DNA of 64,000 nt, taken from Escherichia coli. Lineage in GTDB: Bacteria; Pseudomonadota; Gammaproteobacteria; Enterobacterales; Enterobacteriaceae. Below are positions 28,368 through 45,164 of the stretch, one piece after another. The DNA lies in the NCBI RefSeq assembly GCF_044324875.1, contig NZ_CP172185.1; one strand, written 5' to 3'. The translations under genes were made by a program, and so were the position numbers. Under the pieces are notes generated by a model, which saw only the letters and a list, made by a program, of their open reading frames with translations, was not told the origin of the DNA and ran no database searches. Within the stretch, counting starts at the first letter, position 1. Every line of letters starts with the position of its first letter.

Positions 28368-28482
28368 AAGAAAACATCCCCTGAGAGTTTAATTTTCGTC
28401 AAGATGCGTGGCGGACAATCCCCTGCCAGCGAAACGTTATCTTCCTGCTCCAGGTTTGCGACAAATTGGTGCGTCGCAAAAA

Positions 28483-28497
28483 AGCAAACGTTTAGCT
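28483..28497. promoter_or_regulatory. PurR-box-like palindrome upstream of ghxP
   Basis: AGCAAACGTTTAGCT resembles the PurR operator core GCAAACGTTTGC. Confidence 0.4.
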
Positions 28498-28623
28498 CCG
28501 CGCATACAAAACGGGTGGTAAAAAAAGCAAACGATTATCCGGCGATCATAGCGGCTTTTTCAACCGAAGTTTGCTGCTTTTTTCTCTTTTATTGTCTTGA
28601 CGATGAAAAACCAGGCAATTGAT

Positions 28624-38558: not shown

Positions 38559-39752
38559 TTACATCACCGCAGCAAACGCCTTTGCCACACGTTGTACATT
38601 TGCCGTATTTAACCCGGCGACACACATGCGACCGCTGGCGATGAGATAGACACCAAATTCTTCACGTAGTCGGTCAACCTGAGCGGCACTTAAACCGGTA
38701 TAACTGAACATGCCGCGCTGATTAAGCAGATAATCGAAATTGCGTTCTGGCATCTCTGTGCTTAATACCTTCACCAGTTCCTGACGCATTGCCAGAATGC
38801 GAGTACGCATCTCTTCTACTTCCGCCAGCCAGCTGGCTTTCAATGCCTCGTCATTCAGCACTGCAGCCACCACCTGCGCACCAAAATTCGGCGGGCTGGA
38901 GTAGTTGCGGCGAACTGTTGCTTTCAATTGCCCCAGTACGCGGCCTGCAGCTTCGGCATCTTCACACAGAACAGAAAGTCCGCCAACGCGCTCGCCGTAA
39001 AGGGAGAAAATTTTCGAGAACGAATTGCTCACCAGAGCGGGTAATCCAGCGCTGGCAATGGCGCGAATGGCGTAGGCATCCTCTTCCATACCGGCACCAA
39101 ATCCTTGATAGGCAATATCAAGAAATGGGATAAGCTCGCGGGCTTTGAGAATTTCAATCACCGCATCCCACTGGTTATTAGTGAGATCGGCACCCGTTGG
39201 GTTGTGGCAACATGGGTGGAGCAACACAATACTGCGGGCAGGTAATGTTTTTAGCGTCGCCAACAGGTCATTAAAGCGCACGCCGTTAGTCGCTTCGTCA
39301 TACCAGGGGTAAGTACTCACTTCGAATCCAGCCCCGGCGAATATTGCTACGTGGTTTTCCCAGGTAGGATCGCTGACCCAGACGCCTGATTCCGGGAAGT
39401 AGCGTTTCAGGAAATCTGCGCCCACTTTCAATGCCCCTGAGCCGCCAAGGGTTTGAATGGTTGCTACGCGCTGTTGTTGCAGTACCGGATGGTCCGCACC
39501 AAACAGCAGCGGCGCAATGGCATGGCGATAGCTGTTAAGCCCTTCCATCGGTAAATAAAGCGAAGCGCCATGAGGCTGCGCATTCAGGCGCGCTTCCGCA
39601 TCCGCCACGGCTTTCAGTTGGGGAATAATTCCGTCTTCGTTGTAGTACAGACCGATACTTAAATTCACTTTGTCGCTGCGAGGGTCTTCTTTGAAACGCT
39701 CCATAAGCGTAAGAATCGGGTCGCCAGCGTAGGCGTCAACTTTTTGAAACAC
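38559..39752 (-). CDS. tyrB: Aromatic-amino-acid aminotransferase
   Basis: Matches TyrB throughout ([16 protein letters not shown]...); the protein aligns from a GTG codon 14 codons inside ORF 38559..39794, whose first codon reads TTG. Confidence 0.93.
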
Positions 39753-39948
39753 GCGATGGTTCTCCAGGTTTACGGGCAGGTGGTTAAAACACAATAAACC
39801 GGAAGAAGGCGAAGATCGAGTGGATGTTCAGGGGCGAACGGCAATTAGCAACAGAGTGAGACTCATGACAAACGTACATCCGCCAGAGGCACGGCCTTCA
39901 TAAGAGCATGAAAGAATATCAACTTATTGAATTGGTAGGATTTTATTG

Positions 39949-39964
39949 GCCGGATAAGGCATTC
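39949..39964. repeat. Left half of a REP palindromic unit split by an IS insertion
   Basis: gccggataaggcattc; the other half resumes at 44042. Confidence 0.6.
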
Positions 39965-40015
39965 TGAACTGCACCCCAAATGTTGGACATAATCTGACAT
40001 CTGAAGGTGCAGTTT

Positions 40016-40537
40016 ATGAAACATTCATTTGAAGTAAAACTTGCCGCTGTAAATCATTACCTGGCCGGTCATGCAGGCATCATTTCTACGGCAAAACTCT
40101 TTCAACTTTCTCACACCAGCCTCTCACACTGGATTAATCTTTTTCTTCTTCACGGTCCTCGGGCACTGGATTGCAGACACAAGCGTAGCTATTCTCCTGA
40201 AGATAAACTTTGCGTGGTTCTTTATGCTCTCGGGCATTCTGAGTCTCTACCCCGGGTAGCTGCCCGGTTTAACATTCCCAGCCACAACACGGTTAAAAAC
40301 TGGATAAAAGGCTACCGCAAATCTGGTAATGAGGCCTTTATCAGGCGCTGGAAGGAGAAAAGCATGACCCGTTCTGATGATACCCATGAAAACGAGGCAA
40401 ACATGACGCCGGAAGAGATGAAGAATGAGCTGCGTTATCTTCGCGCAGAAAATGCATATCTGAAAGCCATGCAGGAGCATCTCCTGGAAAAAAAGCGCCA
40501 GGAGCTGGAGAAAAAACGAAAGTCATCCGGAGCCTGA
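40016..40537 (+). CDS. IS3-family transposase OrfA (HTH and leucine-zipper part)
   Basis: 173-aa ORF (MKHSFEVKLAAVNHYLAGH...), followed by orfB in the -1 frame. Confidence 0.85.
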   Translation: MKHSFEVKLAAVNHYLAGHAGIISTAKLFQLSHTSLSHWINLFLLHGPRALDCRHKRSYSPEDKLCVVLYALGHSESLPRVAARFNIPSHNTVKNWIKGYRKSGNEAFIRRWKEKSMTRSDDTHENEANMTPEEMKNELRYLRAENAYLKAMQEHLLEKKRQELEKKRKSSGA

Positions 40538-40639
40538 GGTGCGGATACTGCCAGTCTGATCTGTTAAAGGCTGCAGGGCTGGCCAGAAGCACGCTGTACT
40601 ACCAGCTGTCACTGCAGAAGGCTAAGGACAAGTATGCTG
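40538..40639 (+). pseudogene. 5' fragment of IS3-family orfB, cut by the IS21-family insertion
   Basis: The -1 frame reads LRCGYCQSDLLKAAGLARSTLYYQLSLQKAKDKYA and stops at the IS21-like left end. Confidence 0.5.
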
Positions 40640-40839
40640 CAAAATGGCATCTGAATCGATCGCAGTTTGGCATTCGAATCGATCATGATTTGGCATCCAT
40701 CTCCGATCACAGTTTGGCATCACAATCGATCACGATTTGGCATGCTTCCGATCATTGATTGGCATCCTGCCAGTCACTCCGGGAATTAACTCTTTTCACC
40801 ACAGTCTCCATTGCCGTGTTTAAACCAGTGGAGACGTCA

Positions 40840-42405
40840 ATGTCCAGAAAGAGAAAATCCAGGAGCACTATGGAAACCTGTTTTAAGATCCTTCAGCTCA
40901 AGTTCGACAAGAAGCTGACTAACCGTTGTATCGGACTGACGTTACACATCAGCGCCTCAACCGTTTTTGAGGTTCTTGCCCGCTTCAAAGCCTCTTCTCT
41001 GTCATGGCCATTACCTGCTGATATATCCCATGACACGCTGGAGAAACTCATTTTTCCGCCCAAAGACACCTTTGCATCAGAGCTTGTAATGCCTGACATG
41101 TTGTACTTCGATACGGAAATGAGAAAACCAGGTGTGACGCGGCAACTGTTGTGGATGGAATACAAGGCACAGGCGGGTAACAAAGCGATGGGATACTCGC
41201 ACTTCTGCCGTTGCTACCGGGAGTGGAAAAAAACGCGACGTCTCTCCATGCGCCAGGAGCATCGTGCCGGCGAAAAGCTTTTTATCGACTTCTGTGGTCC
41301 TACGGTTCCTGTTATTAATCCGGACACCGGTGAGATACGCCGCGTGGCAATCTTCGTGGCCGTAATGGGGGCGTCCAACTATACCTACGTTGAAGCGTGC
41401 GAAGGTCAGGACATGATGTCATGGTTAAATGCCCACAGCCGTTGCCTGACCTTCCTGGGCGGCGTACCGAAGCTGCTCATCCCCGATAACCTCAGAAGCG
41501 CAGTGAAAAAGGCCGATCGATATGAGCCTGTCATCAACGACAGTTATCAGGCACTGGCTGAGCACTATGGCACGGTTATCATCCCGGCCCGACCACGCAA
41601 ACCTAAAGATAAACCAAAAGCAGAAAACGGCGTCCTCATCGTTGAACGATGGCTTCTTGCCCGCATCCGTAATGAAACCTTCCACACGCTCAGGGCGCTG
41701 AATGCGCGCCTTAGGGAGTTACTGACAGACATGAATAACCGGCCAATGAAGGGGTACGGCAATCAAACCCGTGCAGAACGCTTCCGCATACTGGATGCGC
41801 CAGCACTCTCTCCGCTGCCTCTGGCACCTTATGAATACACGGAATACAAAGCTGTGAAGGTTGGCCCTGACTACCACGTTGAATATGCCCGTCACTGGTA
41901 CTCCGTTCCACACGAACTGGTCGGTCAGCGTCTGTCACTGAAGGCGGGGCAGTCGGTGGTACAGCTCTGGCACAAGGGGCAGTGTGTGGCGCAACATCCG
42001 CGCAGCACACATGAATATAAACACACAACCAATCCGCTTCACATGCCAGAGCGCCACCGGCAGCACGGGACATGGACACCGGAACGCCTGATCGAGCAGG
42101 GAAAACGTACGGGCCCGTCCACAGGCCGGGTGGTTGAATCCATGCTGAAGGCAAAACCCCATCCGGAACTGGCTTATCGTGCAGTTCTGGGGCTGCTGGC
42201 ACTTCAGAAAAAATACGGCCCGGAACGGCTGGAAAAGGCCTGTTACGTTGCCCTGCACTATAACGCCCCTGACAGACGCTTTATCGACAATCTGCTGCGT
42301 CACCATCGGGAGAACCTGGAGCTTCCATTATCCCGCCAGGGCGAACAACATCCGGCATATGCTTCAGAGCATGAAAACCTGCGTGGTCCGGGCTACTACC
42401 ACTGA
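40840..42405 (+). CDS. istA: IS21-family transposase IstA (HTH and DDE integrase)
   Basis: ORF 40759..42405 with an HTH N-terminus and integrase core; start chosen at MSRKRKSRS and uncertain. Confidence 0.8.
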   Translation: MSRKRKSRSTMETCFKILQLKFDKKLTNRCIGLTLHISASTVFEVLARFKASSLSWPLPADISHDTLEKLIFPPKDTFASELVMPDMLYFDTEMRKPGVTRQLLWMEYKAQAGNKAMGYSHFCRCYREWKKTRRLSMRQEHRAGEKLFIDFCGPTVPVINPDTGEIRRVAIFVAVMGASNYTYVEACEGQDMMSWLNAHSRCLTFLGGVPKLLIPDNLRSAVKKADRYEPVINDSYQALAEHYGTVIIPARPRKPKDKPKAENGVLIVERWLLARIRNETFHTLRALNARLRELLTDMNNRPMKGYGNQTRAERFRILDAPALSPLPLAPYEYTEYKAVKVGPDYHVEYARHWYSVPHELVGQRLSLKAGQSVVQLWHKGQCVAQHPRSTHEYKHTTNPLHMPERHRQHGTWTPERLIEQGKRTGPSTGRVVESMLKAKPHPELAYRAVLGLLALQKKYGPERLEKACYVALHYNAPDRRFIDNLLRHHRENLELPLSRQGEQHPAYASEHENLRGPGYYH

Positions 42406-42421
42406 CAGAAGGAACAACAGT

Positions 42422-43177
42422 ATGAGTGATAACCTGTTAAACAAACTGACCCAACTGAAACTCCCGGCGATGGCCGGGAGCCTGATACGGCAGCGGGAAA
42501 CGCCTCAGACCTACGACGAACTGTCGTTCGAGGAAAGGCTGACGCTGCTGGTTGATGACGAGCTTCTGAGCAGGGAAAACAGCCGTGTGGCACGGTTGAG
42601 AAAAAATGCCGGCCTGAAATACCAGGCAACACCGGAAGGGCTGCGCTATCCGGCCTCAAGAGGTCTGCGGGCTGAACAGATGAGAGAACTGCTGAACGGC
42701 CACTACATAACCCACAGGAAAAACCTGCTGATAACCGGTCCGACAGGATGTGGCAAGAGCTGGATAGCCAATGCGCTGGGCGAACAGGCATGTCGACAGA
42801 AACACAGCGTCCGGTACTGTAGAACCGGGCGATTACTGGAACAACTGGCTCAGGGACGTGTTGATGGCAGCTGGCTGAAATATCTGAAACAGTTGCAAAA
42901 AATACAGGTTCTAATCCTGGACGATCTGGGGCTGGAACAGTTAAGTAACGCCCAGTGTAATGACCTTCTGGAGCTCATAGAGGATCGTTACGGACAAAGC
43001 AGCACGATAGTGGTAAGCCAGTTCCCGGTAGATAAATGGCATGGTCTGATGGAGAACCCAACAACAGCAGATGCCATCCTGGACAGACTGGTACATAACT
43101 CACACCGAGTGGTCCTTCAGGGAGAGTCACTGAGGAAAAATCCCCCGGTAGTGGAAAGCAGCGAAAAAACGCGTTAA
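42422..43177 (+). CDS. istB: IS21-family helper ATPase IstB
   Basis: Walker A GPTGCGKS and Walker B (LILDD); internal ATG of ORF 42179..43177, 17 nt after the istA stop. Confidence 0.85.
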   Translation: MSDNLLNKLTQLKLPAMAGSLIRQRETPQTYDELSFEERLTLLVDDELLSRENSRVARLRKNAGLKYQATPEGLRYPASRGLRAEQMRELLNGHYITHRKNLLITGPTGCGKSWIANALGEQACRQKHSVRYCRTGRLLEQLAQGRVDGSWLKYLKQLQKIQVLILDDLGLEQLSNAQCNDLLELIEDRYGQSSTIVVSQFPVDKWHGLMENPTTADAILDRLVHNSHRVVLQGESLRKNPPVVESSEKTR

Positions 43178-43284
43178 AAAGCGGTAGAAAAAGTTAAGTT
43201 CCCGGTTGATCGAATGGATGCGAATCGCTGATCGGACTTCGATGCCAATCCGTGATCGAATAGAGCGGAATACGCAGTATGCTG

Positions 43285-44020
<736 letters not shown>

Positions 44021-44041
44021 TAGGTTTTGGGGTTCAGTTCA

Positions 44042-44058
44042 TTCACGCCGCATCCGGC
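44042..44058. repeat. Right half of the REP palindromic unit split by the IS insertion
   Basis: ttcacgccgcatccggc; joined to 39949..39964 minus one ttc copy it restores a canonical REP. Confidence 0.6.
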
Positions 44059-44084
44059 ACAAACAATCAAATATTACAGAACGA

Positions 44085-45164
44085 TTAATCCACGTATTTC
44101 ATCGCGACCCTTGAAGTCAGGCGCGTAATAAGTTCGTAAGCGCTTACTTTCGTCATTTCAGCGATACGTTCTACGGGCAAACCTTCGCCCCATAAAATGA
44201 CCGGGTCCCCGGCTTTGTCCTGCGCCTGTGGACCTAAGTCTACGCAGATCATATCCATCGCCACGCGCCCGACAATCGGCACTTCGCGACCGTTCACCAG
44301 CACTGGCGTACCGGACGGCGCGGCGCGCGGATAACCATCGCCATAACCCATCGCGACTACGCCCAGGCGGGTATCACGTTCGCTTACCCAGGTTCCACCA
44401 TAACCGACAGGCTCTCCGGCTTTGTGCTCACGCACGGCAATCAGGCTGGAAGTTAGTGACATCACTGGCTGACAGCCAAAATCGGCACCGGTGGAGCGAT
44501 CTTCCAGCGGAGAGACGCCATAAAGAATGATGCCCGGGCGCACCCAGTCAAAATGCGACTGTGGCCACAGCAGAATGCCACCCGATGCGGCAATGGAACG
44601 TTGACCTGGTTTGCCTTCGCAAAAGGTATTAAAGATAGCGAGTTGTTTCTCGGTTGCGCCGCATTTTGGTTCATCCGCGCGCGCAAAATGGCTGACGATA
44701 TTCACCGGCTGACGAACGTTTTTGCACTGGGTCAGGCGATGATAAAACGCCTCAGCCTGTTCCGGCCTTACGCCCAGACGGTGCATACCGGTATCGAGTT
44801 TCATCCAGACGGTTACCGGCTCGTCCAGGCTAGCCTCTTCCAGCGCAGCCAGCTGTTCTTCGTTATGCACGGCGGTATGAAAATGTTGCGCAGAAATCGT
44901 CGGCAGATCTCTGGCATCAAAAAAGCCTTCGAGTAACAGTACAGGTTTGGTGATTCCCCCCGCACGCAGTCGCAGAGCTTCTTCGAGACGGGCTACGCCA
45001 AAGGCGTCAGCATCGGGGAGCGTTCGCGCGGTCTCAAGAAGACCGTGACCATAAGCGTTCGCTTTCACCACCGCAACCATTTTACTGGCAGGTGCCAGTT
45101 CACGAAGACGTTGCAGGTTGTGTCGCAGAGCGCGGCGGTTAATCACAACAGTTGCCGCTTGCAT
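44085..45164 (-). CDS. alr: Alanine racemase (biosynthetic)
   Basis: 359 aa; PLP-binding [10 protein letters not shown] motif. Confidence 0.95.

Follow-up and report, generated by a model that had tools for sequence, protein, structure and literature searches.

An in-phase A AAA AAG heptamer as the probable −1 frameshift site of an interrupted IS1397 copy in Escherichia coli

Where would ribosomes leave the orfA frame of the IS3-family element at this locus, and which signals would make them do so? Transposases of the IS3 family need the DNA-binding domain of OrfA to be fused to the catalytic domain of OrfB (PMC4066793). A sequence-only reading of the window (the whole 64-kb stretch of DNA analysed here) had placed the orfA/orfB junction at an A-run, within the string gagaaaaaacgaaag at 40508-40522, and had left the mechanism unclear. 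Our analysis points instead to programmed −1 ribosomal frameshifting at a canonical A AAA AAG heptamer at 40489-40495, stimulated by an SD-like element and a hairpin and yielding OrfAB in intact copies, a reading to which we assign a probability of roughly 0.9.

The element itself is, judged by its nucleotide sequence, IS1397, a member of the IS150 group of the IS3 family. The stretch 39965-40637 shares 99.4% nucleotide identity with loci annotated as 'IS3-like element IS1397 family transposase, programmed frameshift', and with its left 680 bases as the query, matches annotated as IS1397 were found in 1,720 of 5,426 complete E. coli genomes. Both halves of the element, 39965-40637 and 43283-44041, align at 99.4% identity with an intact copy in IAI39, and without the insert that separates them the element measures 1,432 bp and has the ends TG...CA. 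Near-identity to IS1397, the ORFs and their frames thereby uphold the earlier assignment of the locus to an IS3-family element with a 0/−1 arrangement of orfA and orfB. The element and the insertion nested within it are made up as follows.

39965-40637, plus strand: left part of IS1397 (left inverted repeat, orfA and the start of orfB), by identity and by alignment to the IAI39 copy.
39965-39980, plus strand: left terminal inverted repeat of IS1397, TGAACTGCACCCCAAA, of which 15 of 16 bases equal the reverse complement of 44026-44041.
44026-44041, plus strand: right terminal inverted repeat of IS1397, ending ...TTCA, by direct alignment with the left repeat.
39962-39964 and 44042-44044, no strand: TTC target duplication of IS1397, read directly from the flanks.
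40638-43276, plus strand: ISSso4-like IS21-family element (istA, istB) with termini TG...CA, by 100% identical annotated copies.
40632-40637 and 43277-43282, no strand: GTATGC, the 6-bp target duplication of the ISSso4-like insertion, by alignment and comparison of ends.

The terminal repeats of IS1397 are imperfect, the longest exact run in their direct alignment being 8. The copy occupies the spacer between tyrB (38559-39794, minus strand) and alr (44085-45164, minus strand), where its flanks, GCCGGATAAGGCA-TTC on the left and TTC-ACGCCGCATCCGGC on the right, form an interrupted palindrome (window 39935-39964 and 44042-44059). This palindrome is presumably a REP, or palindromic unit of a BIME, with the element sitting in its loop. 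Targeting of REP sequences by IS1397 is reportedly discussed in the literature, where BIME palindromic units are said to be a known preference, and the position in the tyrB-alr spacer is consistent with that preference. The copy in the window resembles the reference copies of IS1397 in its 99.4% identity, its TG...CA ends, its insertion into a REP or palindromic unit and its 3-bp duplication. It differs from them in an orfB broken by the ISSso4-like IS21 element and in point differences, namely C40546T and C40560T just 3′ of the hairpin described below and a G at 40529 in place of A, so that the pair formed there in that hairpin is U-G and not U-A. A distant blastn comparison of IS1397 with plasmids matched other IS3 elements in short stretches of the DDE region alone and yielded no useful match to the recoding window.

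According to its ORFs and frames, IS1397 is laid out as orfA, encoding an HTH protein, followed in the −1 frame by orfB, encoding the DDE/rve domain. In the window these coding regions are distributed as follows.

40016-40537, plus strand: orfA, an HTH protein of 173 aa from ATG with its stop TGA at 40535-40537, by ORF list and translation.
40495-40637, plus strand: 5′ fragment of orfB in the −1 frame as it would be read after the slip, APGAGEKTKVIRSLR...KDKYA, by translation.
43283-44009, plus strand: remainder of orfB (DDE/rve domain) with its stop TAA at 44007-44009, by alignment to intact IS1397.

The orfA product is 98% identical to an E. coli protein (P0001) that bears HTH Pfam domains, and precomputed Pfam assignments give HTH_28/HTH_Tnp_1 for OrfA homologues and an rve domain for the homologous fusion proteins. 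The −1 frame is open from 40429, the overlap of orfA and orfB comes to 109 nt, and the −1 ORF across this region has an OrfB-like N-terminus (KVIRSLR...LARSTLYYQ), so the earlier observation that orfB goes on in the −1 frame stands. The same reading had let orfA end with the flagged string; this is refuted by the position of the TGA, which follows 13 nt later.

Within the overlap, two A-runs compete for the role of slip site, and two further elements lie at distances at which they might stimulate a shift.

40489-40495, plus strand: A AAA AAG in the orfA phase, the proposed −1 slippery heptamer, by direct reading, conservation and publication.
40511-40516, plus strand: A6C run, which encodes K166 and K167 of OrfA with two AAA codons and lies in the 5′ part of the predicted hairpin's apical loop.
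40474-40477, plus strand: SD-like GGAG, by direct reading, 12 nt before base 40490, the second base of the heptamer.
40499-40536, plus strand: predicted stimulatory hairpin of 38 nt, MFE −12.4 kcal/mol, z −3.43.

Direct reading of the flagged string gives GAG AAA AAA CGA AAG in the orfA phase, and its description as something other than the canonical heptamer was correct: it consists of six A's followed by C, and because the run begins at a codon boundary it is not an X XXY YYZ heptamer. What that description implied, that the canonical heptamer is absent, was wrong. Indeed, an in-phase A AAA AAG precedes the A6C run by 22 nt and the start of the marked interval by 5 nt, in the context CTG GAA AAA AAG CGC (codons E158, K159 and K160), where it forms an X XXY YYZ heptamer in phase inside the overlap, and the −1 frame is open across the motif. 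The two strands of the window contain 25 copies of AAAAAAG (about 2e-4 per position; shuffles expect 15), and the chance expectation of finding it in phase among the 36 codon positions of the overlap is below 1%. Both the heptamer and the A6 run are invariant in five of five sampled E. coli copies of IS1397. Elsewhere in the window, three AAAAAAG heptamers fall within about 100 nt of one another at 28478-28583 (28478 and 28521 on the plus strand, 28577 on the minus strand). In E. coli, A_AA.A_AA.G ranks with the most efficient of the heptamers (PMC4066793).

The surroundings of the heptamer agree with a role in frameshifting. The spacing of the SD-like GGAG falls inside the 6-17 nt interval of Sharma et al. 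(PMC4066793), and the element is kept in six of the seven elements that make up the IS1397 clade (IS1397 plus the six closest relatives), the seventh, L087, having AGGCG. The bases around it read AGGAG CAU CUCCU (window 40473-40485), a possible 5-bp hairpin that would sequester the SD-like GGAG, and the AGGAG/CUCCU pairing is retained with wobble in the other E. coli subfamily (CUUCU). On the 3′ side, the predicted hairpin starts 4 nt after the heptamer, its first pairs being C-G, A-U, G-C and G-C, and a fold as stable arose in just 2 of 200 shuffles. The predicted fold pairs CAGG with CCUG (40499-40502 with 40533-40536) and, beyond a 2x2 internal loop, CUGGAGA with UC-A-UCCGG (40505-40511 with 40523-40530) below an apical loop at 40512-40522; the orfA stop overlaps its 3′ end. 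This structure agrees with the hairpin rule of PMC4066793, which asks for a start 4-10 nt 3′ of the motif, a G-C/C-G pair followed by three or more further pairs, and an unfolding energy of at least 7.6 kcal/mol. Its 3-nt spacer is the short extreme of the range among IS3 elements (PMC4066793). The sequence-only reading had proposed a search for a downstream stem-loop or pseudoknot, of which the stem-loop is predicted and the pseudoknot is not, a comparison of the loop (40510-40525) with 40537-40637 having revealed no Watson-Crick complementarity of 5 nt or more. When the 112-nt stretch 3′ of the heptamer was folded whole no significant signal emerged (z −0.99); the local 38-nt hairpin alone stands out.

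How well the fold is retained was judged from an alignment of eight sequences. All eight pair the outer stem (A-U or G-U), good pairing of the inner stem is confined to IS1397 itself, and an alternative register (columns 18-23 with 48-53) fits some of the relatives about equally. Among the five sampled E. coli copies the sole difference within the hairpin is the U40506-G40529 pair, which is U-A in the other subfamily. Covariation in the two registers, assessed over these eight sequences that code in two frames, consisted of both-sided changes at one pair, with measures at or below those of shuffles. Protein constraint in the two coding frames partly confounds the conservation seen in the heptamer and the stems. 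The predicted hairpin is supported by its thermodynamics and by its conserved position, and covariation does not prove it.

These structures also bear on whether the slip might happen at the A6C run itself (40508-40517), by single-tRNA or imperfect tandem slippage, which would produce the junction ...EKKRQELEKK-TKVIRSLR.... The run does contain an in-phase A_AAA tetramer (A40513 followed by AAA at 40514-40516), a motif type used by some IS elements, at a point where the −1 frame is open, and 29 of 62 relatives have a phase-0 A5/A6 run close to the orfA stop, as does IS150 (acg aaa aag tga). However, the P-site codon would have to re-pair on GAA, no hairpin starts 4-10 nt 3′ of the run, and the hairpin that belongs to the upstream heptamer has the run in its loop. 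Moreover, A_AA.A is the weakest of the six tetramers that exceed background well, requires a strong stimulator and stays at background level without one (PMC4066793). Nor is the run conserved: across the IS1397 clade it reads A6C in four of seven members, A5G in two (L082 and L085) and ACAAAA in one (L083), and since L083 has no second A-run (GAG ACA AAA CGA), a shift at the A6C position is not possible there. With a canonical heptamer and both of its stimulators available just upstream, invariant in the six relatives, and with none of 119 database fusion proteins joined at the A6C run, the proposal that this run is the slip site of an unclear mechanism gives way, and we regard slippage there as extremely improbable. 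Use of the A_AAA tetramer in the hairpin loop for a second, minor OrfAB isoform is very improbable. The A5/A6 runs near the orfA stop are always in Lys-Lys phase and never in heptamer phase, and from their coding context the A-run near the stop is best read as part of a lysine-rich OrfA tail. For genome scans the practical consequence is that in the IS3 family the heptamer can sit tens of bases upstream of the orfA stop, and that lysine A-runs near the stop are common decoys (29 of 62).

To place the heptamer in a comparative frame, we took the six closest relatives returned by a protein search with OrfA among metagenome and genome assemblies, which have 53-59% OrfA identity, and compared their DNA. 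The stretch GGAAAAAAAGCGCC is unchanged at the same codon position in all six, so that with IS1397 the heptamer is present in seven of seven. In two of them, L083 and L084, a stop in the −1 frame lies directly 5′ of the heptamer and this frame opens just 3 nt before it; because the stop directly precedes the heptamer, the shift cannot be farther upstream in these elements. The sequence-only reading was to be doubted if relatives shared a different slippery site absent from this copy; the conserved site does differ from the A6C run, but it is present here too. We then assembled 62 distinct recoding windows, drawn from 80 loci in species-representative genomes, the close relatives and the window itself, and found an in-phase A AAA AA(G/A) in the overlap of 61 of these 62 windows of the IS150 group. 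At offset 23, on the Y-L-K-K codons right after the conserved LRAENAY motif, an in-phase A AAA AAG or A AAA AAA is found in 53 of the 62 windows; in seven, which constitute the IS1397 clade, the heptamer is at offset 50; one, from Ligilactobacillus (L058), has it at offset 56 only; and one is a mutated copy. In Klebsiella pneumoniae ATCC 13883, the IS150-group locus L014 reads CTAAAAAG (A5) at about 2955-2965 where its sister copy L013 reads CTAAAAAAG, and this A5 change truncates orfA after 10 codons, leaving a copy with a mutated slippery site.

This record of conservation can be set against two accounts in which ribosomes do not shift frame. In the first, RNA polymerase would add an A within the A7 run (40488-40494) or the A6 run and thereby generate some single-frame OrfAB mRNAs, a form of transcriptional realignment that is reportedly used by some IS elements, for example those of the IS1447 group of the IS3 family. 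Efficient slippage by E. coli RNA polymerase needs about nine or more A/T, and most of the relatives, like IS150, have just six A's at the site (CTA AAA AAG). IS1397 does offer an A7 homopolymer, and A7/T7 runs may cause transcriptional slippage (PMC4066793), but what is conserved is the phase-specific A AAA AAG, together with an SD-like element and a hairpin at the spacing expected for PRF, none of which is relevant to RNA polymerase slippage, and we consider this account less probable still than a slip at the A6C run. In the second account there is no recoding at all: orfB would be translated independently, with a start of its own, or be coupled to the orfA stop, and the heptamer would be no more than an accident of Lys-Lys coding. 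Gene callers do report orfB in the relatives as a separate gene from the orfA stop, and independent OrfB products are known for some IS3 members. A coding accident is nevertheless difficult to reconcile with an in-phase heptamer that is nucleotide-invariant across elements of 53-59% protein identity, with in-phase A AAA AA(G/A) in all but one of the 62 related windows and with a −1 frame that, in L083 and L084, is open only from shortly before the heptamer, and of all the alternatives it is the least probable.

We therefore return to ribosomal frameshifting at the heptamer, for which the comparison with the frameshift windows of IS150 and IS1397 that had been suggested is instructive, as both contain A AAA AAG. 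IS150 (E. coli K-12 insJ/insK), the experimentally studied type member of the group, is the same as IS1397 in the 0/−1 phase of orfA and orfB and in its heptamer. Both also have a downstream hairpin with its 3′ arm (GAGCUAAGGC in IS150, AGCCUG in IS1397) on the x-L-R codons of the OrfB start, and a Lys-Lys A-run near the orfA stop within the hairpin loop. They differ in where the heptamer is placed. In IS150 it is at Y-L-K-K (tat cta aaa aag; L094 1661-1669), directly after a leucine-zipper-like motif, whereas in IS1397 it lies 27 nt (9 codons) farther downstream. At the Y-L-K-K position (window 40457-40465) IS1397 and its six closest relatives read CTG AAR GSC, the IS1397 sequence being CTG AAA GCC. 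The hairpin of IS150, GCCUUAGCUC/GAGCUAAGGC, is longer than that of IS1397, with 48 nt, a 10-bp stem and a 6-nt spacer, and no SD-like element was scored for it. In the IS1397 clade the hairpin is shorter, and its 3′ arm is still on the same x-L-R codons of OrfB as in IS150. The balance tips slightly toward a turnover of the frameshift signal within the IS150 group, in which the IS1397 clade would have lost the ancestral-looking Y-L-K-K site and would now slip at a new heptamer 27 nt downstream. An element from Psychrobacillus (L068) bears both heptamers and could be an intermediate in such a turnover. The displacement would be a small, clean case of a recoding site moving within a two-frame overlap, and may be of interest to those who build frameshift predictors.

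Outside the IS150 group, the signals of IS911 and dnaX are built like that of IS1397, with an SD-like element, A AAA AAG and a downstream stem-loop. Their sequences are unrelated to IS1397, and they have been tested experimentally, whereas for IS1397 the signal is an inferred one. On the proposed mechanism, ribosomes translating orfA would reach the heptamer with lysyl-tRNAs on AAA in the P site and AAG in the A site, and a fraction of them would slip one base back onto A-AA and A-AA. The slip would probably be stimulated by the GGAG upstream and the hairpin downstream. Ribosomes that had slipped would stay in the −1 frame and make the OrfAB transposase, of 449 aa in intact copies, with the junction ...LLEKK-APGAGEKTKVIRSLR.... 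The A6C run would take no part as a slip site, supplying instead two AAA codons for lysine close to the orfA stop and being read as E-K-T in the orfB frame. Both the actual slippage at the heptamer and its stimulation by the SD-like GGAG and the hairpin are thus what we infer from the arrangement and conservation of these elements.

The signal has a published counterpart. Sharma et al. 2014 (PMC4066793; Tables S4, S6, S8) place the orfA of IS1397 in cluster A_AAA_AAG_5, with the motif at codon 160 and a product of 449 aa. They score 100% of the sequences as having an SD-like element, and likewise 100% as having a hairpin of 38 nt whose spacer measures 3 nt and whose first stem has 4 bp, and they grade −1 PRF in IS1397 as one that 'can be safely inferred', not as demonstrated (PMC4066793). 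The values that we derived from the window for the heptamer, the SD-like element and the hairpin coincide with these published figures. The recoding signal of IS1397 is therefore already catalogued, as a standard three-part −1 frameshift cassette, and the locus has little significance beyond its correct annotation. Mildly new are the 27-nt displacement of the heptamer relative to IS150 and most of the relatives, the nested ISSso4 junction and a Pro-for-Ala residue in RefSeq proteins.

The nested element is 2,639 bp long and contains istA (40840-42405) and istB (about 42402-43177); copies 100% identical to it are annotated as istA and as 'IS21-like element ISSso4 family helper ATPase IstB'. Its ends were set by comparison with two copies in other contexts. 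The IS1397::ISSso4 junction was found in 0 of 5,426 complete E. coli RefSeq genomes. By this insertion orfB is split between 40637 and 43283, 142 nt after the heptamer, and the coding capacity for an intact transposase is lost; the IS1397 copy, its orfB interrupted by the ISSso4-like element, therefore cannot make transposase. In translation, the product of a slip in this copy has 247 aa, ends inside the ISSso4 end and is without the DDE domain. The frameshift signal in the window copy is a relic.

Database proteins allow the junction to be examined from the product side, although only as it has been annotated. Each model makes its own junction peptide: a slip at the heptamer would give LLEKKAPGAGEK (...LLEKK-APGAGEK...), a slip at the A6 run would give QELEKKTK, and the RefSeq version is LLEKKPPGAGEK. 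We surveyed 119 RefSeq-type fusion proteins longer than 400 aa among those returned by the search. In 106 of them the sequence is LLEKK-P-PGAGEKTK (for example P0060), the outcome of a join that reads C40496, directly 3′ of the heptamer, a second time (window 40495-40498). The other 13 are variants of the same junction, except for two that do not match the junction pattern, and joins at the A6C run were found in 0 of the 119. When the two alternative fusions, with the join at the heptamer and at the A6C run, were looked up as exact sequences, the protein collection contained neither, because RefSeq joins one base later (K-K-P-P-G...). Tandem slippage would give Ala (GCG) at this point rather than Pro, and the junction residue in RefSeq/PGAP is therefore probably an annotation artefact of where the join is placed. 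It amounts to a minor inaccuracy in most of the annotated IS1397 fusion proteins sampled (106 of 119). A different variant of IS1397 is represented by P0039 (E. coli, 21 member sequences), which reads ...LLEKKRRSWRKTKVIQSLR.... Two single-base deletions account for it: CGCCAGG has lost a base, and A6 has become A5. Jointly these deletions fuse orfA and orfB without a frameshift, and the variant could be either a constitutive-fusion mutant or a homopolymer sequencing error.
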